From Pseudobdellovibrionaceae bacterium (lineage in GTDB: Bacteria; Bdellovibrionota; Bdellovibrionia; Bdellovibrionales; Bdellovibrionaceae), in NCBI GenBank assembly GCA_039810425.1, contig JBDHWW010000061.1, positions 1-15,942 on the forward strand: a DNA stretch of 15,942 bases, given 5' to 3'. The position numbers were made by a program, and so were the translations under genes. This document shows positions 2,021-15,914 of this stretch, one piece after another; position 1 is the stretch's first letter; every line of letters begins with the position of its first letter. The notes below the pieces were generated by a model that saw only the letters and a program-made list of their open reading frames with translations, was not told the DNA's origin and made no database searches.

Positions 2021-2430
2021 GTAAATCAACAGACTTTCCATTTAATAACGTCATTCCTATTCGTAAAACGGATCACTTCGGTGTTTACACAGGTGAAGTC
2101 AGTTCAAGTGGTGAAATCATTGAGGGAGAAAGTGTTGGTATCGCTTTTTTAAAAAACCGAAGTAAAAAATTTCGACTGAAACTTTTTGTATTTCCGAGCC
2201 ACAACTACTTTATCGTGCCTGATGACAATGACGCTACCAAGTACATCGTTCTAAGCCTTGAGGAGTATCAACTTCCTACGGGTGAAATGCGCTCTCACTG
2301 GAACCGCATCGGTGAAGGAAGACTTGTTGGAAGTTTCATCGCACTTCGTATGCAGCTTATTTCTGGAAAACTCTATCTCTGTCTGTTTCCAGATAAAAAC
2401 GATGCTTTGGAGGATTCCATTGCTTCTTAA
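2017..2430 (+). CDS. Hypothetical beta-rich protein with an internal duplication; possible ssDNA-binding protein (DUF736-like)
   Basis: Two similar segments: ESVGIAFLKNRSKKFRLKLFVFPSHNYFIVP and HWNRIGEGRLVGSFIALRMQLISGKLYLCLFP. ATGA-coupled to the upstream gene. The function is inference. Confidence 0.65.
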   Translation: MSKSTDFPFNNVIPIRKTDHFGVYTGEVSSSGEIIEGESVGIAFLKNRSKKFRLKLFVFPSHNYFIVPDDNDATKYIVLSLEEYQLPTGEMRSHWNRIGEGRLVGSFIALRMQLISGKLYLCLFPDKNDALEDSIAS

Positions 2431-2455
2431 CCAATTTAACAAAGGAGGTGAACTT

Positions 2456-2743
2456 ATGAATCGAAAATACAAAATAATTTTCTCCTGTATGCTAATAGCT
2501 GTAGCTTTTGCTATTCCTGAGCTTGCAAACGCAAGTGTTGAGTCTTCGCTTCTAGGAATGCAGACGAAGCTCACGCGCGTGATTCTTCCATCACTCTCTA
2601 TCTGCGCCATTGCATGGGCCGCATTTTCAATGATGTCCGGTAATGACAAGTCAAAGACCCATCTTTGGTATGCCATTATCGCAACGATTGTAGGGTTTGG
2701 CGCGGAATCCATCGTTAATTTCATTTCGCAGACGGTGCGCTAA
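2456..2743 (+). CDS. virB2: VirB2/TrbC-family conjugal pilin (95 aa)
   Basis: SD AAGGAGGTG precedes ATG 2456 (start moved from 2258). Signal peptide ending PELANA, two hydrophobic helices, C-terminal GFGAESIVNF, and position before VirB3/VirB4. Confidence 0.85.
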   Translation: MNRKYKIIFSCMLIAVAFAIPELANASVESSLLGMQTKLTRVILPSLSICAIAWAAFSMMSGNDKSKTHLWYAIIATIVGFGAESIVNFISQTVR

Positions 2744-3066
2744 TGAGTGACGATTCAATTTTGACCTCAACGGTCCCGCGCACACTTGAAACTAAAAATA
2801 AGATCTTAGGCCTTGAGCTTTCAGATGTGCTGGTTCTTTTATTAAATCTTTCAGCTCAGAACTTAATTTTTGGCTCAACAAGTTTTAAAATCCCAATGGT
2901 ATTTGGAACAAGTTTAATTTTAGGCTTGGCGCTTTTCTTTTTTAAGCGCGGAAAGCCTGATCATTATCTTCAGCATGTTTTTGAGCACTTTGTCTCTCCA
3001 ACAGTCTTTGCTGCAAACACAATTGATCGTGAATACCGAAGATTCAATAAGGGTGGTGGCAAGTGA
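2743..3066 (+). CDS. VirB3/TraL-like inner membrane protein
   Basis: 107 aa; VPRTL..K.KILGLE motif, two TM segments and KRGKPDHYLQH; lies between the pilin and VirB4. Confidence 0.78.
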   Translation: MSDDSILTSTVPRTLETKNKILGLELSDVLVLLLNLSAQNLIFGSTSFKIPMVFGTSLILGLALFFFKRGKPDHYLQHVFEHFVSPTVFAANTIDREYRRFNKGGGK

Positions 3067-5525
3067 TTGAAGCTGCACTTTGCGAACAACTTCCGTTCTG
3101 GGAATTTGAACAAGATCCGATCCCACACACAATTTTATCGGACGGCTCCGTTTCAGCGGGAATTGAGCTTTTGCCAATCGATATTGAATGTTTTGATGAA
3201 TCACGTATCAATCAACTAACCCTTCGACTTAGAGCCTTTGCGAACTCGCTTCCCGAAGGAACAACGGCGCAGTTTTTGGTTAAGGTGGAATCTGATGTCG
3301 AAGAGATTTTAAAGAAACACTGTGACCTTGTATCAACTGACAACGAATTTTTGCGCAGCCTTGATCAAAAGCGTTCCCAACGTTTGCAAGATCAGATTCA
3401 ATCCGAAACGATCTTTCGCCCAAGATTGCTCTTTTTCTTAAGAACGGGCGGCGTCCAAAAACCAAGTTCATTTTCATTCGGTCAGGCGAAGAAATTCTCT
3501 GCTGAGTTCGAAAAGAACTATGAAGATCAACTGCAAACGTTAAGTCAGGCTCTTGCGAGTGCCTCAGGCATCCTATCATCACTCGGATTTAAAGCAGATC
3601 GCCTTGAACGAGATGATCTTATTCAAATTCTTTACAGCTATTTTAACCCAAAACGCTCGCATGACATCGAACAGCCTGTGGTTTCACCACGATTAACGGA
3701 GTTAGATGGGGCTTCACCTAGGTCACAGGTTGTTTTTGGAGATTTGGTTTTAGACCGCGAAGATTTTATTTTAGACCAGCGTCGCACACGCGTTTTAACT
3801 CTTAAAACCATGCCGGAGATGACATTTGGCGGAATGATGAGTTCATTTTTAGCTTTGCCGTTTAAGTACGAGCTTATTTTTTCGTTCCGAATTCAGGATC
3901 AGGCCAAAGAAATGAAGGCGCTTGAAAGTAAACGCCGCATGGCCCACTCGCTTTCAAGCACCACAAGTAACCGCGTGTCAGACTTAGAAAGTGAATCGCG
4001 TTTGTCACAGACAACAGATCTGATTCGTGAACTGATTGAAACAGGCCAGCGCATCTATCAAGCGGAAATGGTTTTGATTCTGCGTGAGTCAGCAACACTT
4101 GATGGTGAAAAGAAATTAAACCTTAAAACAAAAGAAGTTTTATCGCGCTTTAAAACCTTAAGTGGATCTGAGGGTATTCAGGAAACCGTTGGAGCCTGGA
4201 AGATCTTTAAATCAGATTTACCGCTGGCGCCAGTCAATCTTGTCCGCGCTAAGGCAATGAAAACAAATAATCTTGTTGATTTTCTACCACTTTATGGCGC
4301 AGCGACGGGCGACGAAATTCCCGTGTGTCTTACGAAAACACGCCTTGGGACTTTGTATTCCTATGATCCGTATTCAAACAGGCTATCGAACTACAATATC
4401 CTAACTACGGGATCTAGTGGTTCAGGTAAGAGTTTTGCGAATAACTTCTTAATGCTTCAACAAATTGCTCGCGGAAGCCGCCTTTATGTCATCGACATCG
4501 GCGGCTCGTATAAGAAAATGACAGAAGTCTTGAATGGTCAGTATTTTGAAATCAACTTAAGCGGTCAATATACAATTAATCCGTTTGAGCTATCTAATCC
4601 CGCTGAACCTCCAAGTGGCGATCGCCTTAAAGGTATGGTCAGCATTATTGAGCAGATGGTCGTAGATCAAGGCGAAAAACTAAGCCGATTTGACAGAGTA
4701 CAACTCGAAACAGCTTTAACCTCAGTTTTTGAAAAGGCCCGCAGTGAAAATACGCAGCACTCACCGGTTTTATCAGATCTTGCAAAGCACTGCTTAAAAG
4801 ATCCTGAAGAATCCCTAAGACGGATAGGAAAACTTCTTTTTCCCTGGGTTGGTGAAACTCCTTACGGAAAACTACTTGATGGGCATGGGAAAATTGCCGT
4901 TGATAAGTCCATTGTCGCTTTTGATTTGAAAGGACTTTCTCAGTATCCGGATCTTCAATCCGTGATGATTCTGATTTTAACGAATTTTATCTTAGAACAA
5001 GTTGAAACAGATCGCACGGTTCCAAAGCGGGTCTTGCTTGATGAGGTTTGGGAGCTTTTAAAAAGTCCTGCTGCTAGTTCTTTCATGGAGTATGCAGCTA
5101 GAACTTTTCGTAAAACAGGAAGCGGAATTACATTTATCACCCAAGGGGTTGAGGAAATTATCGCAAGTGGCATGGGCCCTGCGATCTTAAACAACACCGC
5201 AACTAAGCTTGTGATGCTGCAAAAAGGTGACACGAATATTCTTCGTGATGCTTTAAAGCTGAACTCCCAAGAACTTCGTTTGCTTCAAAGTCTCGAGCAG
5301 CGAAAGGGCCAATTCAGTGAAGGATTTCTGATGGAAGGAGAAAGTCGTCAGGTAATTCGTATTGAGCCTTCGCCTTTAGAGTATTGGATCTCCACGTCAG
5401 ATGCCCGCGATAATCAGTTTTTAAATCGACTTCGCAATGAAGGGCATTCGTTAGAATCAGCTCTGATGAAAGCAGCAGAGGTAGCACCGTTTGGCGCCTC
5501 CTCTATGAAGGCGGTGGCTGCATGA
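3063..5525 (+). CDS. virB4: VirB4/TraC-family T4SS ATPase
   Basis: 820 aa; Walker A GSSGSGKS, VIDIGGSY, Walker B VLLDEVW, RTFRKTG..ITFITQ and ILNNT. Confidence 0.95.
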   Translation: MIEAALCEQLPFWEFEQDPIPHTILSDGSVSAGIELLPIDIECFDESRINQLTLRLRAFANSLPEGTTAQFLVKVESDVEEILKKHCDLVSTDNEFLRSLDQKRSQRLQDQIQSETIFRPRLLFFLRTGGVQKPSSFSFGQAKKFSAEFEKNYEDQLQTLSQALASASGILSSLGFKADRLERDDLIQILYSYFNPKRSHDIEQPVVSPRLTELDGASPRSQVVFGDLVLDREDFILDQRRTRVLTLKTMPEMTFGGMMSSFLALPFKYELIFSFRIQDQAKEMKALESKRRMAHSLSSTTSNRVSDLESESRLSQTTDLIRELIETGQRIYQAEMVLILRESATLDGEKKLNLKTKEVLSRFKTLSGSEGIQETVGAWKIFKSDLPLAPVNLVRAKAMKTNNLVDFLPLYGAATGDEIPVCLTKTRLGTLYSYDPYSNRLSNYNILTTGSSGSGKSFANNFLMLQQIARGSRLYVIDIGGSYKKMTEVLNGQYFEINLSGQYTINPFELSNPAEPPSGDRLKGMVSIIEQMVVDQGEKLSRFDRVQLETALTSVFEKARSENTQHSPVLSDLAKHCLKDPEESLRRIGKLLFPWVGETPYGKLLDGHGKIAVDKSIVAFDLKGLSQYPDLQSVMILILTNFILEQVETDRTVPKRVLLDEVWELLKSPAASSFMEYAARTFRKTGSGITFITQGVEEIIASGMGPAILNNTATKLVMLQKGDTNILRDALKLNSQELRLLQSLEQRKGQFSEGFLMEGESRQVIRIEPSPLEYWISTSDARDNQFLNRLRNEGHSLESALMKAAEVAPFGASSMKAVAA

Positions 5526-6223
5526 GGAATAAAATCATCGGATTTTTTCTTTGTATGACGCTGACGGTATCCCCTAGGTCCGCGAAAGCGGACCTGTTCG
5601 GAGGCGATGTCGCGGTTTTAGTACAGATTCTGGCTCAGGCCATTCAAACGGTCACAACACTTAAGGGGGTACTTGAAAATGGCAAGGACACTCTGAATTT
5701 GATGCGTGATTTGAATGCGGGCATCAGAAGCGGGATTGATGTGATTCGCATCATCAATCCAAACTTCAATCCCGGCGTCTATGGAGACTTAAAAGACGCC
5801 AATCGAGTTTTAGCTGCAATTGAAGCCGTGTACGGTGTTACTCCAAAAGGAATGGACGAAGACTTGATGCGTTCACAGGATCAAAGTGTCGCTGAAGTTA
5901 TTTCTATGAACCGAAATCTCTACGACTATGCCGATCAGGTGGACCGCGAGCGTGACAAAATCCTTTACCACGCCCAAGTAGTAAGTCCTCAAGGGGCTGG
6001 GAAACTTCAAAACCAAGCTCTCGGTGTTTTGATTGGTGTTACAACACAGCTCTTACGGACACAAAGTCAGATGCTTAAGATCATGGCGCAAAATATGGCC
6101 TATGATACGCGTAAAGAAAAACTCTCTACTCAGAATTTTCAAGAAAACTATCAAGGGCTCTCTCAAGGGTTTGAGAATCTTCCAAAGGAAACCAAACTTC
6201 CACGCCTTGGGGGTGGCAAATGA
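5522..6223 (+). CDS. Secreted VirB5/TrbJ-like helical protein
   Basis: Signal peptide (AKA|D) and Gln-rich helical body; located between VirB4 and the VirB6-like gene. Confidence 0.65.
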   Translation: MRNKIIGFFLCMTLTVSPRSAKADLFGGDVAVLVQILAQAIQTVTTLKGVLENGKDTLNLMRDLNAGIRSGIDVIRIINPNFNPGVYGDLKDANRVLAAIEAVYGVTPKGMDEDLMRSQDQSVAEVISMNRNLYDYADQVDRERDKILYHAQVVSPQGAGKLQNQALGVLIGVTTQLLRTQSQMLKIMAQNMAYDTRKEKLSTQNFQENYQGLSQGFENLPKETKLPRLGGGK

Positions 6224-7092
6224 TGCCAAACCTTGAAATGCTAGGAACACTGGTGCGTGATCTGCACCAAGGCTTGAGTCATCTATTCTATATCATGTTA
6301 CCTATAGCGATTCTGTTTTCGGTGGTTTTTAGTTTTTTAAAATCAGGCGATCCCAATTATCCAGACGTTGTAAAGCGTGCATTCGTAGCGGCTCTATTGA
6401 TTGTTTCATTTCCTGAAGTTTCAAACTTCATCTTGGATGTTTGTGACGGGATCGCTCTTAAGATTGACGATATGTCGGGGCTTGAAACGTTCATGAAGAT
6501 GGCCCAAGAAAAATCCCTCGGATATGCGGCGGCAAAAAAAGTCCTACTGCTAAAGTTCGATGGGTTTTTCATGGCGATCTTAAGCTTTGCAAGCTTCGCT
6601 CTACTCTATATAGCGAAATATCTGACAGTGATTCTGTACTATTTTTATTGGGGCCTTTTGTCTATTGCAGCCCCCTTAATGATTCTTTGTTATTTATTTC
6701 CCTCAACAGCAAACATCACGGTCAATCTGTATAAGGGACTCATTGAAGTTGCATCGTGGAAAATAATTTGGGCGATTTTATCAGCCATGCTGAAATCGGT
6801 TTCGCTTGGTTTTATTTATGAAAATGAGCAGTCGTATCTGCCACTTGTCGCAATGAATTTCATTATTGCTATTGCGCTCTTGTTCACACCAAGAATTTTA
6901 CGCTCTCTCATTGGAGAAGGTGTTCAATCAACAGCAGCGAATATTGGAAGTGCTGCGGTGTCAGGAGTTCTCACGACAGTGGCCCCTGCTGCAAAACTTG
7001 CACAAGGCGTGAAGTTTTCTCAAGCGGTGCTACCTAGATCTTGGCAAGCATCCAGTCCTAAAAACCATTCAACAACTAACAAACGATCTTAA
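6220..7092 (+). CDS. VirB6/TrbL-like polytopic membrane protein
   Basis: About 5-6 TM segments, an APLMILCYLFPST motif and a small-residue-rich C-terminal tail. Confidence 0.78.
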   Translation: MMPNLEMLGTLVRDLHQGLSHLFYIMLPIAILFSVVFSFLKSGDPNYPDVVKRAFVAALLIVSFPEVSNFILDVCDGIALKIDDMSGLETFMKMAQEKSLGYAAAKKVLLLKFDGFFMAILSFASFALLYIAKYLTVILYYFYWGLLSIAAPLMILCYLFPSTANITVNLYKGLIEVASWKIIWAILSAMLKSVSLGFIYENEQSYLPLVAMNFIIAIALLFTPRILRSLIGEGVQSTAANIGSAAVSGVLTTVAPAAKLAQGVKFSQAVLPRSWQASSPKNHSTTNKRS

Positions 7093-7112
7093 AGATCGAA
7101 GGAGGTGTATTT

Positions 7113-7703
7113 ATGAAAGATAAAATTAAAGTTCAACTTAGTCAATATCCCAAAGCCATGCGTGAGTTCGCAGAAGAAAACCTGAACATCAAGTTTCTCT
7201 GCGGAGCACTGCTTGCAATTACTTTTTTCATGCTGATTCTGGTTCTGTATTTAGTGAAGCGTGGCCCCACAGTGATTGCACTTGAAAGCAGTGGTTCAGT
7301 TGCTGCTATTGAAACCAAAGTAACCGATGCACAAATTGAATCAGCAGCTAAAGAGTATGTACGTCACCGTTACTCATGGGATGAAAAGACAATTTCTGAA
7401 GAGCTTGAAAAAGCTAAATTCTTTGTGCTGCCATCCCTTGCAGCGGCATTTGAACGCTCGATGCTGGAAACCATGAAATTTGTGCGCGAGAAGAAAGTCA
7501 GACAGCGTGTTTATCCAAAATCTGTAACTGTTGATTTGAAGGAGAAGAAAATTTCAATTCTTGCAGACCGCATTACTGAGTTTGATAATTTGAAAGCGGC
7601 CACCGCGCTTAGACTTTCGCTTCAGTTCACCGTTGATGACCGTACTATCATCAATCCTTGGGGCGTCTATATAACAAAAGAATCTGAGGAGGCTTCTCGA
7701 TGA
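7113..7703 (+). CDS. VirB8/TrbF-like bitopic protein
   Basis: Single N-terminal TM, YVRHRYSWD helix, C-terminal NPWGVYIT motif typical of VirB8, and SD GGAGGTG. Confidence 0.82.
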   Translation: MKDKIKVQLSQYPKAMREFAEENLNIKFLCGALLAITFFMLILVLYLVKRGPTVIALESSGSVAAIETKVTDAQIESAAKEYVRHRYSWDEKTISEELEKAKFFVLPSLAAAFERSMLETMKFVREKKVRQRVYPKSVTVDLKEKKISILADRITEFDNLKAATALRLSLQFTVDDRTIINPWGVYITKESEEASR

Positions 7704-8407
7704 GAACTTTCTTAGCTGTAGTTATGTTATTAAGTATGACTTCGATCAGCAGGGCTCAGGTCAGAAATTCAGTCATTAAGGAAGATGGTATTTTGACTGT
7801 GAAAACGGCTCTTGGGATTGCGACCATTGTGCAGCTTCCTGAGGTTATTCAGTCGGCCATCATTGGAGATCAATCTGGATTTAAAATTGAGTACCTCGAT
7901 AAAGCTGTTACGATCAAGCCGCTTCGCTGGGGAGCTAAAACAAATCTATACCTAGTAACGGGATCAAGACGGTTTAATCTCAGGCTTGTTACCGGCTCTC
8001 AAGACACGGCTGATTACATTGTCTATCTAAAAAAACCAGAACCGCCCAAGTCAGTAACGAAATGGCGTCTTGTTAATCGCAGCAATGCACAAAAAAATAT
8101 GAAGCTCACCGTTGTTCGTATCGGCCAAAGTCCGAGTGGGTTTATTCTAGTTGATGCGCTTTTGACTTTGACTCAGCCGCAGCGAACGACAGTAACCCCA
8201 GAGTCTATCTGGATCAGACAAGCTGGTTCTTCAAAAGTAATTAACAGTATTTTTATGTCGGATTCAAAAGTCGAAAAAGACAAACCACTTCGCTTGGGAC
8301 TTTCTCTTGCGAAATCTGACCTTATCAAAGGGAAGCCCCTTGTAATTGAGGTGCGATCTGAGCAGACGCTTTCACTCCAACTGAATGAAGGTGATTTATG
8401 GAAGTAA
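7700..8407 (+). CDS. VirB9/TrbG-like core complex protein
   Basis: Signal peptide, ATIVQLP...IIGD, VTIKP...TNLYLVT..RRFNLRL; immediately upstream of VirB10. Confidence 0.82.
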   Translation: MRTFLAVVMLLSMTSISRAQVRNSVIKEDGILTVKTALGIATIVQLPEVIQSAIIGDQSGFKIEYLDKAVTIKPLRWGAKTNLYLVTGSRRFNLRLVTGSQDTADYIVYLKKPEPPKSVTKWRLVNRSNAQKNMKLTVVRIGQSPSGFILVDALLTLTQPQRTTVTPESIWIRQAGSSKVINSIFMSDSKVEKDKPLRLGLSLAKSDLIKGKPLVIEVRSEQTLSLQLNEGDLWK

Positions 8408-9357
8408 AAAATATCTTCACTAGTGCAAAAGAAAAATTTAAAAGACTCAAGAGTGGATTAAAAAATTCAGTTATCGAAGAAAATGCTTTTAGCCGGAAAT
8501 TTGATCTGAATTTCAAGACTCTTAAAATTGCGGCGATTTGCGGTATTGTCATTTTTATTACAGTTGTGTTTTTGCTTCCAACGGACGTTCCCGTTGAGTT
8601 TGCAGAAAAGATCGAGCGTTCTGAAGAAAATAAAAGTGATTCTGTTAAACCACAGGACGGCTCCCACCAAACAGAATCAGCTCAAAACCTTTGGGCGGCA
8701 CCTCAGGTTGCAGTACCTCGTGGTTCCGGTGGAAGTCAGATCAATTACAACACTTCCATGATCGTTGGCTCAAAAAATGGAAATGCTAAAACTGAGCTCA
8801 GATCTGGCATCCGTATTCCTTTAAGGCTTTTAGATAAAGTGATCTTATCTCAAGACCCAGTTCCCATCTTAGCAGAATCTATTTTGGATTCTGTTTCAGA
8901 TTCTGGGTTAATGCTTCCAGCTGGGACAAGGTTCTATGGACAAGCCAGCTTTCAAAGTGGATCAGACCGAGCCCTTATTCATTTTGATCGAATTTCTTTA
9001 CCAAGTGGGCAGATCAAAAGAATTGCAGCACTTGCATTGGATAAATCTGGCCAGCCAGGGGTCACGGGCAAAGTCTTTTCTGATGGAGTGAAGAACACGG
9101 CAGGCCAAGTGCTCACAACATTCATCGGAGGACTTGCCGCTGGAAGCATGCAAACCGACATCATGGGCAACTCGAAAGGCGGCATTGAAAACGGTCTTTT
9201 AGGAGCTGTTGCCGCCACCGCTCAGTCGCGGGCTCAAGCCTACGGAGAAAAGCTTAAAACAGAGCGCGAGTGGATTGAGCTTAATCCTGGGACTGAGTGT
9301 GACGCGGTTTTAAATGAATCTTTCAAATTACAAGAAGGAGGTGAAAGTTATGAATAA
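8398..9357 (+). CDS. virB10: VirB10/TrbI-like core complex protein
   Basis: N-terminal TM, low-complexity linker, LPAGTRFYG, RALIHFDRISLPSG, D.SG.PGVTG, Gly/Ala antenna helices and IELNPGT. Confidence 0.88.
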   Translation: MEVKNIFTSAKEKFKRLKSGLKNSVIEENAFSRKFDLNFKTLKIAAICGIVIFITVVFLLPTDVPVEFAEKIERSEENKSDSVKPQDGSHQTESAQNLWAAPQVAVPRGSGGSQINYNTSMIVGSKNGNAKTELRSGIRIPLRLLDKVILSQDPVPILAESILDSVSDSGLMLPAGTRFYGQASFQSGSDRALIHFDRISLPSGQIKRIAALALDKSGQPGVTGKVFSDGVKNTAGQVLTTFIGGLAAGSMQTDIMGNSKGGIENGLLGAVAATAQSRAQAYGEKLKTEREWIELNPGTECDAVLNESFKLQEGGESYE

Positions 9358-10996
9358 TAAATCGGAAATGTCAGATCGCGGCTTTTTAGTTCTAACGGTA
9401 GCGCTGGGGATCGGAATCCTATGGCTCCGCTATAAAATTCAGATCATGTCCTTCATTGTAAATTACAGAATCGCCGTGGCTGCTGCCATTACAATGATTT
9501 TGGTTATAGCTTTGCTGTTTGTAAGAAAAAAGATTCTGTCTAAAAATAAAGAACGCAACACTGAGCGTGATATTGTCACTCCAACGAATGGTGAAGATGC
9601 GGTTTTTGCAGGTCTATCTGCAACTGGTAACAACATTTACGTTAAACAACAGTTCCGCAGAATGCACACTCAGGTTGTCGGTACTACAAACGCCGGAAAA
9701 ACAGAGTCAGTGATTTTACCCTGGGCTATTGATGATATTAAAAAAGGCCGTGGGCTTCTTATTATAGATGGTAAGTCCGATATGAGTTTGTTAAATAAGC
9801 TCTACGCCTACGTAAAACGCCATCATCGTGAAGGTGATTTAAGAATTCTTTCACTTTGCAATGTGGGAATCAGTCACACTTTTAATCCACTTTGCGGTGG
9901 CTCCGCTCTTGAAATCACAGAACGTGTTTTTAACGCGTTTACTTTTGAAAACGAGTATTTCAAAAGTATTCAGTATGATGTGTTCCTTCATTCGCTTTTG
10001 ATGTTAGAGGCAGCTCAAATAAAACCTACACCGCTTAGAATGATTGAGTGCATGAAAAATGAAAAGGCCTTAGCTGATCTTGCCATGATGACGAAAAGCC
10101 CGCGACTTCAGATTTGGGCTGGAGATTTTTTAAAATTAAGCCGCGAGGAGCGTGAGCAACGAACAAGTGGTCTTGTGGCGCAGCTTCAAAGTTTTGCTGT
10201 GGGAGAAACAGCTCAAATTTTTAACTCTGAGATTTCCGACATCAATCTCGAACAAGCTCTTGAGCACAATGAAATCATCTACTGCCAGCTTCCGGCGTTA
10301 AAAATTCCAATATTAGGTAAAGCTACAGGAAAAATGATTCTTCAATGTTTACAAAGCGCTGTTTCGTCAAGACACCTGGGAATGTGCGAAAATCAAAGTT
10401 TCTTCTCCGTATACTTGGATGACTTCACCGAGTATTTGACTCCAAGCTTTGTCACACTCTTGAATAAATCAAGAAGTGCTAATGTTGGGATTGTTTTTGC
10501 GCACCAAGCTCTGGGCGACCTTGATGGTCTGGGTGATGGAGTTAAGAATACGATTCTGACCAACTCAAATCTTAAAGTTTTTATGCGCACGAATGAGCCC
10601 GAATCGGCTGAATATTTTTCGGCGGTCATTGGAACCTCGCAAAGCGCCAAAGTCACTGAGCGACAAACCAAGGGACTGTTTGGCTCTGAGAAAACTGGCG
10701 ACGGCTCTGTTCGTGAAGTTGAAGAGTATAAATATCATCCGAATATTTTTAAACAAGAACTCGGTGTTGGTGAGGCTGTTATGGTGTTACCACATGCCCA
10801 AGGCAGTCTGGCGGTTCGTTTGAAATTTAAGAAAAGTTTTGATCTTGATAAACCTCAAATTCCGTTGATCCAAAAATCAGAACCAATGGGTATGTTAAAG
10901 CTTGATCCTACAGTTAAAACAAATCAGCCGCAGATACTCAAGCCTCATTCTACATCTGTGATGATGGAACTTACTCAAGAAAAGAGGGCTGCGTGA
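9350..10996 (+). CDS. virD4: Type IV coupling protein (VirD4/TraD family)
   Basis: Two N-terminal TMs, HTQVVGTTNAGKT (Walker A), IIDGKSD, TFNPL, YLDDF (Walker B) and KSRSANVGIVFAHQ. SD AAGGAGGTG supports ATG 9350 rather than 9314. Confidence 0.93.
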   Translation: MNNKSEMSDRGFLVLTVALGIGILWLRYKIQIMSFIVNYRIAVAAAITMILVIALLFVRKKILSKNKERNTERDIVTPTNGEDAVFAGLSATGNNIYVKQQFRRMHTQVVGTTNAGKTESVILPWAIDDIKKGRGLLIIDGKSDMSLLNKLYAYVKRHHREGDLRILSLCNVGISHTFNPLCGGSALEITERVFNAFTFENEYFKSIQYDVFLHSLLMLEAAQIKPTPLRMIECMKNEKALADLAMMTKSPRLQIWAGDFLKLSREEREQRTSGLVAQLQSFAVGETAQIFNSEISDINLEQALEHNEIIYCQLPALKIPILGKATGKMILQCLQSAVSSRHLGMCENQSFFSVYLDDFTEYLTPSFVTLLNKSRSANVGIVFAHQALGDLDGLGDGVKNTILTNSNLKVFMRTNEPESAEYFSAVIGTSQSAKVTERQTKGLFGSEKTGDGSVREVEEYKYHPNIFKQELGVGEAVMVLPHAQGSLAVRLKFKKSFDLDKPQIPLIQKSEPMGMLKLDPTVKTNQPQILKPHSTSVMMELTQEKRAA

Positions 10997-11286
10997 TGAG
11001 AAATATATTTTTGCTTTTTTCTTTGATGATAGTCGGATGCGCTCACTCGCCTAAGTGCGGAAACCCTGAAGGGGCCAAGGTTGTTTTGGTTGGCGAAAAC
11101 TCCTGCCAAGTCCGTATTCGTCAGGTAACAATGGGCTCAGAACTCAAAATCCCGCAGTCCTTAAAAGGTGCTGCGTTAGCTGATTTTACATTGGAATGGA
11201 TCGAGCCATCCCTTGATTCTGGCAGGATTGAGTTAGGGCATTTTGTACTGGTTCCGTCATCGGCGAAAAAGGATTCCGGTTTATGA
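10993..11286 (+). CDS. TraV/VirB7-like outer-membrane lipoprotein
   Basis: Lipobox IVG|C, additional Cys residues, and C-terminal WIEP..DSG.I..GHFVLV resembling the TraV C-terminal motif. Confidence 0.65.
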   Translation: MMRNIFLLFSLMIVGCAHSPKCGNPEGAKVVLVGENSCQVRIRQVTMGSELKIPQSLKGAALADFTLEWIEPSLDSGRIELGHFVLVPSSAKKDSGL

Positions 11287-12080
11287 GAACTCCAGATAAG
11301 AAGGTCATTTCTGATTCTTTAGAATTTGCTGCCCGTTGGGGGTTTTTAACTCAAAGCCTGTTCTTTGAGTTTTTCTGCCGAATGAGCCGAGCCCAGCAGT
11401 ACAGGTACTGGAGCTACCTGACTGACAAAGGATACTTTGTTAAATCAAAGCATCATGAGCATACACTGATTCTTTCTTACCGAAGTCGTAAACTCTTGGG
11501 AGATCAAGTTCGTCCGGCGCGTTCGTATTTTTACATTGAGCATGACTCCATTGTTGCGAGGTTCTATCTTTCGTTAGCGCAAAGAGATCTATTAGGCGAT
11601 ACGTGGCTTGAAGATGAACTTATGCGAAACCCTTTAGAAGCTTATAGTGTTTTGGGATGTCAGCAGATTCAGCGGGTGCCAGATCTAGTATTTGATCTGA
11701 AAAGAAATAATGCCGCCGCTATCCGGTGCGCTTTGGAGATCGAGAAATCAACCAAGTCTAAAAGTCGTTACGCAAAAATAGCGCTTGCGTATTTGGATAT
11801 GTCAAAAGTGAGCATCTCATTGTATGGCTGCGTAAGCGAGACCACTGCAAAAGTCATTCGTTCCGCATTTAACAGTCCAGAATTTGTAGAAAGAGATAGA
11901 ATCCCCGGAACTTTTCTTTATGAAAGTTATGATGCAAGTCAGTTTAATTCTCAGGTACGATTCGCCGACAACGAAATGACTTTCCAGAATTTTATTTCTG
12001 TCGTCACTGGGCATTCATTAAGAGACCGAATTGAGAAATCAATCTCAGTATGCAAACCTCAAAAATCGGAGGCTGCATGA
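11283..12080 (+). CDS. MOBC-like / replication-relaxation family relaxase (wHTH + PD-(D/E)xK nuclease)
   Basis: PD-x17-EIEKSTKSKSRY fits the MOBC signature D-x6-17-ExE-x3-K-x3-RY. Also an EHD motif, and it lies next to the coupling protein. Confidence 0.8.
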   Translation: MRTPDKKVISDSLEFAARWGFLTQSLFFEFFCRMSRAQQYRYWSYLTDKGYFVKSKHHEHTLILSYRSRKLLGDQVRPARSYFYIEHDSIVARFYLSLAQRDLLGDTWLEDELMRNPLEAYSVLGCQQIQRVPDLVFDLKRNNAAAIRCALEIEKSTKSKSRYAKIALAYLDMSKVSISLYGCVSETTAKVIRSAFNSPEFVERDRIPGTFLYESYDASQFNSQVRFADNEMTFQNFISVVTGHSLRDRIEKSISVCKPQKSEAA

Positions 12081-12252: not shown

Positions 12253-12672
12253 ATGAAGGAAGAAAAAATAAATCAGAAAACCAAAGAAAATAAAGAAGAC
12301 AGCAACGAAGTTGGAAAATTCATTCGAATAAGTGGCGAAGCTGATGAGGCATTGTCGAAGCTCCACGATGATTTGAATAAAATCGGAGATGTTGTCAGGA
12401 TTACGAAGGTGATGGTTGCGAGCTATGTGTTGGAAAAATTTTGCGCGATTTTTAGTGATGATGATTTGAAAGCTTTGTACATGAAGAACGTGTCGGAAGT
12501 GGATTTATTACGATTTGCCTATAAGCGAGCAATGGATTCTGGCGTGATGCCGGAGAATCTGCGCGAAATCCTCTTTGCAAACGCAGGCTTAACTCCTGGC
12601 CCCAAAAAAGTGAAAAAAGCTAGACAAGTCAATGGTAGCATTGCTACCATTGATGAATCGGAGGCAAGTTGA
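12253..12672 (+). CDS. Hypothetical protein, probable ribbon-helix-helix DNA-binding (relaxosome accessory-like)
   Basis: SD AAGGAGGTGA; FIRIS strand followed by two helices (EADEALSKLHDDLN; TKVMVASYVLEKF). Confidence 0.65.
   Translation: MKEEKINQKTKENKEDSNEVGKFIRISGEADEALSKLHDDLNKIGDVVRITKVMVASYVLEKFCAIFSDDDLKALYMKNVSEVDLLRFAYKRAMDSGVMPENLREILFANAGLTPGPKKVKKARQVNGSIATIDESEAS
12621..12653 (+). promoter_or_regulatory. Putative sigma70 promoter with overlapping 25-bp palindromic operator upstream of the XRE gene
   Basis: TAGACA (12621-12626), 18 nt, then TACCAT (12645-12650) with extended TG. Perfect palindrome TCAATGGTAGCA-T-TGCTACCATTGA at 12629-12653. Confidence 0.65.
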
Positions 12673-12923
12673 AACCTCAAGAGTTCAAAAAAATTCGGGA
12701 GTCTTTCGACTTAACTCAAAGTGAGCTTGCAGAATGTCTTGGCCTTACGCAAAAGACGGTAAGCCAATATGAAATGGGTTTTCGAGTGCCTGGCCCTACC
12801 GTGCAAGTGGTGATGAATACCTTGGATCGTGTTAAGCGAAATCAGCTCAAAACTCTACTCGAAATTATGAAAGAGGTATCGGAAGAGCTGAAAACGACCA
12901 AAGAAAAATGGAATCCGTCTTGA
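12669..12923 (+). CDS. XRE/Cro-family HTH transcriptional regulator
   Basis: FKKIRESFDLTQSELAECLGLTQKTVSQYEMGFRVP is a canonical HTH_3 pattern; TTG start with GGAGG. Confidence 0.92.
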   Translation: MKPQEFKKIRESFDLTQSELAECLGLTQKTVSQYEMGFRVPGPTVQVVMNTLDRVKRNQLKTLLEIMKEVSEELKTTKEKWNPS

Positions 12924-13123
12924 GACGGCCAAAGGAAAAGAAGGACTCAAAGACAATGACACAGTTGCCGCCAATCACAGTTGAATATGTAAAAGATGAG
13001 TCTCTGAACTCACAAAGACGTTGTGACGAAATTGTTGAGATCCTTTATCAGATGATGGTTCATCGGCCAAAACGAGGTCGTCCAAGAGTGAAAGATCAAG
13101 AGGAGTTTTTAGATGTCGCATAA
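12908..13123 (+). CDS. Small basic protein with AT-hook-like KRGRPR motif; candidate recombination directionality factor
   Basis: Overlaps both the XRE and integrase genes. Start uncertain (12908 or later). The function is inferred from position. Confidence 0.6.
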   Translation: MESVLRRPKEKKDSKTMTQLPPITVEYVKDESLNSQRRCDEIVEILYQMMVHRPKRGRPRVKDQEEFLDVA

Positions 13124-14900
13124 AATAGGAGCTTATCTACGTGTGAGTACCGAAGAACAAGCGGCTGCGGTCGAAGGTTCATTAGATAATCAACGCTATC
13201 GTTTAAAGGCATACGTCGATTCAAAAAACATGCAGGAAAAATCTTGGGGAAAAGTCGTTGATTTCTACGTCGATGATGGCTTTTCAGCGAAGGATACAAA
13301 TCGTCCGGCGTATCAACGAATGATGCTCGATTTGAAAAACAAGAAGATAGATTTGATTTTAGTAGCTGATCTTTCGAGGTTATCTCGTAATCTTTTAGAT
13401 TTTTGCGGTTTATTGAGTTTTTTAGAAAGGCACAAATCGGGATTTCTTTCGATCAAAGAGCAATTCGATACAAGCACTTCAATTGGCCGAATGATGGTTT
13501 ATCAAATAATCACATTGGCTCAATTTGAACGAGAACAAACATCGGAGAGAGTTGCTCTCGGTGCTCACGCACGTGGAATGCGTGGTCTTTTGAATGGTGG
13601 TCGTCCGATATTGGGTTTTGATAAAGATCCTAATAAGCCAGGCGTCTATGTCGTAAATCCCGAAGAAGCAAAAGTGGTGCGTCGTATTTTTGAATTATAT
13701 CTTGAGCAAGGGTCAAAGGCTCGCACAATTCGAAAATTGGATGAACTCGGAATTAAGCCTAAGCTAAACTTCAAATCAAAAAGTGGTTCACTCGATAGAG
13801 GTTGGTCAGTTGAGAATTTGGGGTATCTTCTTAGCAATGCAACTTATAAGGGATGCCACGAGGTTAATAAAAAAAGAAAGAGTGAAGACCAGGAATCGTT
13901 GAAACCTCATCATCGTTATCAAATTGTTAAAGCCTCTTGGCCTGCGGTGGTTTCGGATGACCTTTTTAACAAAGTTCAAGAGCAACTAGATGCGGCTAAA
14001 TCAATCGAACGTACACGCCTAGAAGGGGCAAGCCCACGTCTTTATATTTTGTCGAGTATTTTTAAATGTGCGGAGTGTGGTGAAGCTCTGGTTGGCCAGT
14101 CATACCACGGTCATGGCGGCGTATACCGATACTACGGACATACAACAAAAGGATCAAAAAATGGCTGCAAGGTGCAGAGGGTTTCTGCTGATGAAATCGA
14201 AAAAGCTGTGATTAGGTATCTCAAGGACAGCTTGGTCGATTCATCTTATTTTAAGAAGTTGCAGGCAAGATTAAAGCAGCTCACAGATCGGTCGACGACA
14301 GACTACTCTGACCAGATCAAGCATGTACAAAAAGAAATCGCCATGGTGGAGCAAGAGGCGACCAACATATTTAGAATGCAGGCTCAGGGTAACTTTGGTT
14401 CCGATGTCTTAAAGATGATGTCTGACCGATTGGAGTTGATCGCCAAGCAAAAGAACCAATATGTCGAATCTCTAAAGATGTTTGAGTCTAAGCAAAACGA
14501 TGTGTTTGATGCGGCAGAATCGGCTCAATTTATTCGATCAAGTATTGTTGAGTTCGAAAAGGGTTTTGATAAGGCTCCGATGGGGCTTAAGAAAAGACTT
14601 GTTCGTAACACCCTTAAGCAAGTTGTGTTGGCTCACGATAAATTGGCGTTTTGGTTTTTCACAGACGAAGATGAGCGGGGCTTTGGGCAGCGCCATTTGA
14701 AATTAGTTCGAGATGAGTCGAGTGAGGTCGGTGTTTCTTTGGCTTCGGGGGCTGATTTCGCGGTTTCTAATCTGTCGGTACAAGGTTTGGATATTGGTAA
14801 AATTGGTGATGCTGGCACGACTCGAACGTGCGACCTATTGCTTAGAAGGTCTATGTCTTATCCACCCGTATCAATTCTTTATGTGATTTCATTGGGTTAG
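13113..14900 (+). CDS. Large serine recombinase (integrase)
   Basis: YLRVST catalytic Ser, DDGFSAKDTNRPAY, DLSRLSRN, recombinase domain (NPEEAKVVRRIFELY...WPAVVSDDLF), zinc ribbon CAECG...H...C and coiled coil. Confidence 0.95.
   Translation: MSHKIGAYLRVSTEEQAAAVEGSLDNQRYRLKAYVDSKNMQEKSWGKVVDFYVDDGFSAKDTNRPAYQRMMLDLKNKKIDLILVADLSRLSRNLLDFCGLLSFLERHKSGFLSIKEQFDTSTSIGRMMVYQIITLAQFEREQTSERVALGAHARGMRGLLNGGRPILGFDKDPNKPGVYVVNPEEAKVVRRIFELYLEQGSKARTIRKLDELGIKPKLNFKSKSGSLDRGWSVENLGYLLSNATYKGCHEVNKKRKSEDQESLKPHHRYQIVKASWPAVVSDDLFNKVQEQLDAAKSIERTRLEGASPRLYILSSIFKCAECGEALVGQSYHGHGGVYRYYGHTTKGSKNGCKVQRVSADEIEKAVIRYLKDSLVDSSYFKKLQARLKQLTDRSTTDYSDQIKHVQKEIAMVEQEATNIFRMQAQGNFGSDVLKMMSDRLELIAKQKNQYVESLKMFESKQNDVFDAAESAQFIRSSIVEFEKGFDKAPMGLKKRLVRNTLKQVVLAHDKLAFWFFTDEDERGFGQRHLKLVRDESSEVGVSLASGADFAVSNLSVQGLDIGKIGDAGTTRTCDLLLRRSMSYPPVSILYVISLG
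14804..14849 (-). other. 3' half of tRNA-Arg(UCU): attachment-site fragment, not a complete tRNA
   Basis: Minus strand C-CTTCTAA-GCAAT-AGGTC-GCACG-TTCGAGT-CGTGC-CAGCATC-A-CCA: anticodon loop with TCT, perfect T-arm and CCA end. The 5' anticodon-stem strand (expected ATTGC, seen TAGAC) and the 5' acceptor strand are absent. Confidence 0.88.
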
Positions 14901-15029
14901 TCAATGAGCGAAACTGTCCCGACGAAGGGCGGTAGTGAGGTCATTTTGTTTATGGTGTTCTGGAAGTAAGAGAGGGCCGGAAAATCAGAGAATTTTTGGA
15001 CTCCTGAAAATTACCGAAAAGCCCGATAT

Positions 15030-15914
15030 GTGGGCGATATGGCATCACATTTAGCGATTGTTCCTGTCCGATATACGCAGGAAGAACATGAACGAGTTTT
15101 GAAAATTGAAGGCGTGATTGAGGAATTCAACCGCCTGAAGAACATCAGCAATGATAAGGGTTTTTCACACCCTGAAAGGTTCACGGCCAAGCAGGAGTTT
15201 GAACAGAAGTTTCCCAAAGGGAATTATCAGTCTATCGTTGCGGAATTTTTTAGACCTGAAGATAAGTTTGCGGAGGAAGTTCACGCCACTTTGGGGATTA
15301 ACTATTCCTCTTATAGAATTTTAGAGTTTTTAGTTCGGGAGACTCTTTCTCACGACAATGATTTCAACATCATTGAGTCCCGTCTGACTAAGATGGGGCC
15401 AAAATCTTTCTTAGTAGGGAGAACGGACCCTTACTACATTTGGAATGCTATCAGTAAATACATTGATGGTTTTCCAATGGCGGACTCTTACTATTATGGC
15501 CTTCAGGGAATTTACATTGATAAGTGGAACTACGTTAAAAAAGTTGAACTGGATTTCAAAAAGAAGATGGAGAACATTGACCAAGCGGTTCAGGTTCTTC
15601 GGGCCATAGATAGCGATTACGCCGACGAACAAAAAGAAGTCCTCACCAAAAATCTTTATGAAGAGGTTGAGGAAAAAATCAAGGTTGGGAAAAACGCTCT
15701 CCATAACTTCGTGAAAATTGACCCTGAAACCCGAAGCATCATCGTGGACTATGGGAAGTTTGTTTTTTTCAAGAGATACGCTCTGGCTATACGAATGATT
15801 TATGAGCCTGTATTGAAGGCGATGAATGGTAGTGATGAAATCAATATGACGAGGTTTCATCAGTGTCCCGCTTTTTTGTTAATCGGACTTTTGACGCGGA
15901 TATTTAAGGGATGA
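15030..15914 (+). CDS. Hypothetical protein (294 aa), possibly N-terminally interrupted
   Basis: Long ORF with protein-like composition and no recognisable motif. No SD at 15030/15039; the frame is open back to a TAA at 14967. Confidence 0.7.
   Translation: MGDMASHLAIVPVRYTQEEHERVLKIEGVIEEFNRLKNISNDKGFSHPERFTAKQEFEQKFPKGNYQSIVAEFFRPEDKFAEEVHATLGINYSSYRILEFLVRETLSHDNDFNIIESRLTKMGPKSFLVGRTDPYYIWNAISKYIDGFPMADSYYYGLQGIYIDKWNYVKKVELDFKKKMENIDQAVQVLRAIDSDYADEQKEVLTKNLYEEVEEKIKVGKNALHNFVKIDPETRSIIVDYGKFVFFKRYALAIRMIYEPVLKAMNGSDEINMTRFHQCPAFLLIGLLTRIFKG

Follow-up and report, generated by a model that had tools for sequence, protein, structure and literature searches.

A serine integrase gene of a Bdellovibrionota conjugative element that spans its own attachment site and may be cut in two by integration

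Control of an integrase by the integrity of its own gene is well known for tyrosine integrases, and has only been suggested for serine integrases, in the case of DsiB. The integrase of Mx8 is a tyrosine recombinase. In Mx8, according to the passages available from one review, attP lies within the integrase gene, and integration makes a new 3′ end that changes the activity of the enzyme without killing it (PMC6070905). For the so-called “suicidal” archaeal integrases of SSV1, pTN3 and pT26-2, the accessible part of a second source likewise describes an att site in the gene, with the two halves at the element ends (PMC8371274). In BPs, excerpts place attP in the repressor gene, from which integration removes a degron (PMC3694055). 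Among serine integrases, passages on Dehalococcoides report that the att site invariably lies across the 3′ end of the DsiB gene and that the integrated C-terminus is variable; the authors suggest that full function may be confined to the circle (McMurdie 2011, PMC3146451). The layout of a serine integrase with its att site inside the gene is, on those passages, therefore already in print (PMC3146451).

The locus compared with these systems is a window of 15,942 nucleotides, the whole of contig G000:C61 of a Pseudobdellovibrionaceae bacterium, with a GC content of 42.5% versus 49% for the genome. The integrase, type IV secretion genes and coupling protein of an integrative conjugative element are all present. 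A conjugation module on the plus strand (2258–12080) has pilin, VirB4, VirB8, VirB9, VirB10 and VirD4-like genes; a MobC-type relaxase match at 11283–12080 is weak (E 3.6e-4, far below the cut-off). Three small overlapping open reading frames (ORFs) follow on the same strand (12253–13123), encoding 139 amino acids, an 84-residue XRE-type helix-turn-helix (HTH) protein and 71 amino acids, the last overlapping the start of the integrase gene; they are candidate regulators or a candidate directionality factor. At the other end of the window, Pfam-type domain search identified a small serine resolvase on the minus strand (279–1100). It is 72% like a resolvase in G043:C12 that sits after, and in the same direction as, a frame like the far-end module described below; the window resolvase faces away from the element interior and has no module upstream, an orientation that possibly reflects an inversion or a second element. 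A short sequence at 15864–15906 is multi-copy, with contig depths of 39–139 versus 17 for the window in sequencing run X1; it also occurs in X7 and is 83% like G000:C100:5767–5819.

The gene at 13113–14900 (plus strand, 595 amino acids) encodes the integrated form of a large serine recombinase (LSR), an identity borne out by domain matches above the Pfam cut-offs for Resolvase (PF00239), Recombinase (PF07508) and Zn_ribbon_recom (PF13408). The catalytic serine, S12, is invariant among the homologues compared. An AlphaFold model predicts long coiled-coil helices at residues 377–462 and a folded part that ends near residue 545, with pLDDT below 50 for residues 548–595. The named homologues and related loci all come from Bdellovibrionota. 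A sequence-only reading of this DNA had described an LSR with no stop before a tRNA half, and the frame is indeed open there: codons 14805–14849 are, as quoted in that reading, the antisense of the host-derived 3′ half of a tRNA-Arg(UCU) (14804–14849, minus strand), read through as residues 565–579. All 46 bases are identical to the antisense of intact tRNA-Arg(UCU) genes in two genomes of the same genus (G001 and G005), so the match is not due to chance. The final 16 residues (580–595) are encoded by non-tRNA DNA, also as described. Searches of the window with ARAGORN and Rfam gave no tRNA, as expected for half a gene. The missing 5′ half is at G000:C17:15143–15182 (40/40 identical to the G001 and G005 tRNAs); read on from the window, it yields 24 residues, of which the first five are Gln-Leu-Leu-Tyr-Pro, in agreement with the prediction that an intact tRNA would continue the protein with Q and an LLYP-like sequence. 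Contigs of RNA run X15 cover the LSR only to 14737 and have no bearing on expression.

The abrupt end of the tRNA at 14849/14850 probably belongs to a separate, tyrosine-integrase element with its other end on C17. Cores in the anticodon loop are typical of tyrosine integrases, and a 9-base core common to both tRNA halves lies in that loop (14841–14849). It is followed by a terminal arm (14850–14948, plus strand), from which the LSR draws its final 16 residues and its stop codon (14850–14900). The stretch from 14799 to 14948 is 70% identical over 150 bases to G000:C17:5258–5403, where no LSR precedes the copy. Beyond the arm, a 294-amino-acid ORF (15030–15914, plus strand) with no Pfam, NCBIfam or Atlas match weakly resembles (E 0.001, 20%) an arm-adjacent 369-amino-acid ORF on C17. 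On that contig, the tRNA 5′ half adjoins a Phage_integrase gene (E 6.5e-9, above the cut-off), tandem units have weak Rep matches, one unit ends in the window-like arm, and an intact tRNA-Arg(UCU) differs in sequence from the split one (C17:13665–13741). The second element thus has a short core in a tRNA, an unrestored tRNA, a spare tRNA and a tyrosine integrase; its link from C61 to C17 is drawn from the tRNA halves rather than from assembly. The closest known case is tRNA-dependent lysogeny which, in the passages available, has in common the tyrosine integrase, the short tRNA core, the unrestored tRNA and the carriage of a tRNA of the same type (PMC10865867). Unlike the tailed actinophages of those passages (PMC10865867), the second element appears to be of rolling-circle type, with a weak Rep match.

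The sequence-only reading had, by implication, placed the att site of the LSR at this same junction. The part of its claim that stands is that the LSR att site lies in its own gene and makes the C-terminus depend on recombination state; the position does not, since the crossover maps elsewhere, 40 bases to the left at 14808/14809. Here the core is six bases (14804–14809), the antisense of tRNA positions 76–71, and is spanned by Gly565 and Asp566. The symmetry centre is at 14808/14809, and the probable crossover dinucleotide, 14808–14809, falls within codon 566. We infer that the LSR recombines at the CCA/acceptor end of the tRNA, inside its own gene. The element-side (P) arm (14768–14803, plus strand) is part of the LSR coding sequence, and a 14-base motif in it (14784–14797) pairs at 13 of 14 bases, as an inverted repeat, with the far-end arm of locus L084, whose core has six bases in common with 14804–14809; among far-end arms scored against the window P arm, that of L084 ranks first (18/28). 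L084 (G041:C224) serves as a proxy, being the only far-end module match in G041, which also holds locus L001 on a separate contig.

Additional evidence for this att position came from 12 element end pairs, which were selected manually on the basis of repeats, GC steps and module frame, 11 of them each on one contig, with the second-longest repeat used for G001, G004 and G035. Every pair shares at least six bases starting from TGG. The inverted-repeat score peaks solely when the centre is set after core base 5, where cognate ends average 15.3/28 versus 9.9/28 for non-cognate ends; other centres score 5.9–8.7. G007 is an outlier, with a dead frame at the far end and no symmetry at that centre. 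Further evidence came from other hosts of the same element end. In L001 the end is 99.2% identical over 4061 bases and abuts an intact tRNA that differs at acceptor-stem positions 14811–14813. In other sequencing runs, too, the sequence after 14810 is host-specific: X10 has an intact tRNA, X6 a stretch resembling a tRNA, X13 the tRNA of a different host, and X2 and X7 a version of the second element's arm. Run X1, from which the window may derive, does not count as independent. Because hosts with the same element end diverge from 14811 on, the tRNA is host-derived. In a survey of 42 distinct LSR loci of at most 7 kb (longer loci and duplicates were skipped), a tRNA or tmRNA was detected at the gene end in 31, and in all 31 the LSR frame stays open through the core, across 12 kinds of target. 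The tRNA-Arg(UCU) genes of the window (14804–14811) and of the L001, L003, L004 and L044 hosts keep the G2–U71 wobble pair in an otherwise variable acceptor stem; positions 71–72 correspond to the putative crossover dinucleotide. Conservation of G2–U71 may be the reason one integrase serves many hosts.

The 16-residue tail probably exists only because the second element later split the same tRNA at its anticodon loop. The earlier proposal gave this tail a role as a degron or a switch of directionality, governed by the recombination state of the LSR. The tail is unusually hydrophobic, and tails derived from a similar arm and sharing a motif end P0039 and P0047. However, those two tails are longer and have different ends, the last 10-mer of the window LSR is more hydrophobic than that of any of 120 homologues, and in X2 the second element's arm differs by four substitutions and departs from the window sequence at the stop codon. 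(The regex sorting of the 120 homologue tails was crude, with 22 unclear and at least two misfiled, and serves as a guide only.) Integrated tails in the 31 loci range from 6 to 97 residues, 15 of them ending after 6, and have no last residues in common. The parallel with BPs also breaks down, as the passages on BPs put the att-swapped degron on the repressor rather than the integrase (PMC3694055). A tail that comes from the arm of a different element, and is unconserved, unstructured and host-dependent, makes the switch proposal hardly credible; the tail is likely a neutral accident of the second element.

The far ends of related elements point to what the LSR gene may have lost. There, a frame of ~170 amino acids encodes an HTH and then a recombinase-type domain; in L084 it matches the Pfam Recombinase family (PF07508) above the cut-off. 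A structural model of the module has two confident domains (mean pLDDT 81), and Foldseek detected a weak likeness to serine-integrase recombinase domains and to paired domains (best E 0.006), with no match at E ≤ 0.001. Of 151 genomes in the order, 58 carry the module, and a search of viral contigs gave no relative of it. Among 40 far-end loci, with C99 counted twice, a core candidate was present in 38, of which 35 were in the LSR frame, two were in a second frame and one was probably a wrong pick. An HTH tyrosine follows the core at a distance of 34 or 38 codons. In both genomes with a second-frame module (G023 and G036), the LSR of the same genome reads the core in that frame too, and its arm best matches the shifted module, which is on a separate contig. 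For the module, dN/dS is 0.055–0.31 (15 of 105 pairs were close enough to score, 14 computable), values that, at the level of sequence, show purifying selection.

These data also bear on whether the module is simply a free-standing gene next to an LSR that happens to have no stop codon. Some in-frame start precedes the HTH in 20 of 36 scored loci and none does in 16; the starts lie anywhere from 35 to 4 codons ahead of the HTH tyrosine, and a ribosome-binding-like motif accompanies only three. At E ≤ 1e-30, an LSR match is absent from seven of 15 module-bearing genomes, whose modules lie in small islands at tRNA ends and are intact in several cases, which independent expression of the module would also explain. 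A free gene is at odds, however, with the co-variation of module frame and LSR frame, and with the LSR linker, a low-conservation segment that is stop-free in 31 of 31 loci and has a dN/dS of 0.14–0.31 (residues 520–548) compared with 0.4–1.3 for the att arm, although two of the six comparisons behind these ranges are duplicates. We consider a free-standing gene very improbable. LSR-less mini-islands of ~4–7 kb were observed at the 3′ ends of tRNA-Arg, -Pro, -Gln and -Met (L185, L186, L187, L190 and L191), bounded by the same cores and with the module kept, interrupted by a stop in one island. They are likely satellites or deletion remnants of the LSR family. The idea that circles of these islands fuse a short peptide to the module was rejected, as no conserved open P-side frame was found in the five islands.

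LSR and module also occur in single frames: natural fusions are P0015 (86% identical to the window LSR), P0013 (HTH only) and P0121. The only fusion with a known context is a 751-amino-acid frame in G014:C46, which lies in a chromosomal tandem array and not on a circle. Fusing the window LSR to the L084 frame would give 735 amino acids. Sequence comparison shows where the att site lies, that the linker is open, that relatives have a far-end module in a matching frame and under purifying selection, and that fused frames occur; excision would likely re-attach the ~170-residue predicted DNA-binding module to the LSR. In tandem arrays, G014:C46 joins an LSR to a neighbour's far end in frame, whereas the joins in L125, L193 (G036:C72) and L180 (G136:C8) are out of frame or stop early; tandem insertion can therefore swap or silence modules.

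The explanation that we hold, at somewhat better than even confidence, is that integration cuts a two-part gene, leaving a core of residues 1–566 in the chromosome, that the circle encodes a DNA-binding fusion of ~735 residues favouring integration, and that the 16-residue tail is incidental. The integrase gene of the element would span an att site at the CCA end of a host tRNA; once cut, the chromosomal copy would consist of residues 1–566 and whatever junk lies beyond, and the circle would encode the fusion with its predicted HTH and recombinase-type DNA-binding module. Excision would rebuild an operon of small regulators, LSR–module fusion and small membrane protein, expressed from the circle only. 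Most likely, the module would clamp attP or nearby element DNA, favouring integration in a new host. Integration would switch off the fusion and the membrane protein, and the module-less integrated enzyme would need a separate factor to excise. At the window locus, a second, tyrosine-integrase element would later have split the same tRNA, creating the hydrophobic tail of 16 residues. The module is less likely to be a classical directionality factor: in the passages of one study, fusions with directionality factors promote excision and reduce integration (PMC5737554), which is the wrong direction for an incoming circle.

The small membrane protein in this scheme comes from a gene behind the module (in L084, and in C99 from ~2588 onward) that encodes ~55–85 amino acids with a hydrophobic N-terminus and a conserved Trp-Gly-Ser-Pro motif. 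By eye, it overlaps or closely trails the module stop, within ~20 bases, in 27 of 37 loci; 30 have some ORF there. As a guess from its sequence, the product may be a membrane protein that acts as a circle-specific factor such as entry exclusion. Its position can be read another way: the split of the LSR gene would be real, and the module would be a circle-specific transcription regulator or would couple translation of the membrane gene, leaving the direction of recombination unaffected. The start of the conserved small gene within ~20 bases of the module stop is consistent with this, as are HTH matches of the module and the Foldseek result, where the module is as like paired-domain/HTH regulators as LSR recombinase domains (E 0.006–0.01, none significant). 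We regard it as unlikely, since a regulator needs no fusion to a 566-residue recombinase and the second half of the module is a recombinase-type domain. A predicted complex of LSR residues 160–520 with the module scored 0.02 and is evidence neither way.

How the integrated enzyme behaves would depend on what the cut leaves. Upstream of it, the enzyme retains the catalytic serine together with intact recombinase, zinc-ribbon and coiled-coil regions, and with the core whole the module need not matter for recombination. This arrangement weighs against a suicidal integrase, in which the module-less form would be inactive and integrated copies would be trapped until a related element or tandem insertion supplied the fusion. 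Such a scheme is the model for SSV1-type integrases in the passages on them (PMC8371274), and the recurrence of tandem arrays and of LSR-less mini-islands with the same cores fits it. The accessible account of Mx8, where the swapped end leaves the enzyme active (PMC6070905), points the other way, and trapping appears distinctly improbable.

Searches for the excised form and for the cognate far end bear on the state of the window copy. Contigs from eight sequencing runs, in which rare forms are dropped by assembly, contain no excised (attP) junction. A motif scan of metagenome contigs returned 38 matches, six with an LSR upstream; five of these were intact tRNAs and one an out-of-frame tandem junction, with no in-frame attP. 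The cognate far end was not found in the G000 assembly, and scans for the core with arm symmetry gave nothing convincing; the window copy may therefore be dead. The G000 assembly, with only one full family LSR, has orphan far-end modules at C99:2085–2585, C102:4625–4921 and C64:116–616. As candidates for the cognate end all three were rejected, none being in the top 14 for symmetry with the P arm; the C99 and C64 modules have no DNA match to L084. The C99 module begins at a core of tRNA-Arg type, immediately downstream of a hairpin resembling those that follow the tRNA-Arg copies of C17, and C99 is possibly a hybrid end. A match of 14 bases where C115 begins was put down to chance.

Compared with the systems described above, the window LSR is closest to DsiB: in both, a serine integrase gene overlaps the att site and runs antisense into the target RNA gene (PMC3146451). 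The available DsiB passages (PMC3146451) give tmRNA (ssrA) as the only target and describe no fused DNA-binding domain, whereas the window clade uses 12 kinds of tRNA and tmRNA target and has a two-domain module of ~170 residues under selection, and the window LSR belongs to a conjugative element. The window LSR has a tRNA-Arg target and neighbours that encode type IV secretion and regulators, and the six-gene Dehalococcoides integration module is absent. By its predicted layout it works like DsiB, yet it lies outside the ssrA-island family. In contrast to Mx8, which the passages assign to a phage (PMC6070905), the window LSR belongs to a conjugative element. SSV1-type tyrosine enzymes, on the part of the source seen, lose a catalytic part (PMC8371274); here the enzyme is a serine recombinase, the core upstream of the cut is intact and an accessory module is severed. 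As in the BPs excerpts (PMC3694055), integration rewrites a C-terminus, but the att site is in the integrase and the 31 integrated tails have no degron pattern. One review states that only archaea have self-disrupting recombinases, a claim contradicted by DsiB and this clade. A literature search of main texts, with few subscription papers, found no LSR with an att-severed HTH and recombinase module, and the accessible portion of PMC12884075 has nothing on one.

The window's hydrophobic tail is probably ordinary debris. LSRs taken from integrated elements of this clade carry junk tails in their annotation and lack the conserved part of ~170 residues, so screens of “wild-type” enzymes taken from such elements may in fact assay truncated proteins. 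Of interest for retargeting is that arms in this clade accept many tRNA ends (12 kinds of target across 31 loci). If the module alters activity, the direction or expression of a serine integrase would be set by the integrity of its own gene. A broader proposal, possible though doubtful at present, is that across this Bdellovibrionota LSR clade recombination is itself a directionality switch, with a circle-only module of two extra DNA-binding domains, and the coupled membrane protein, driving integration at almost any tRNA CCA end, with integration then cutting these domains off, and with tandem insertions swapping modules between elements. If that is true, module swapping via tandem insertions would be natural domain shuffling toward new target specificity.
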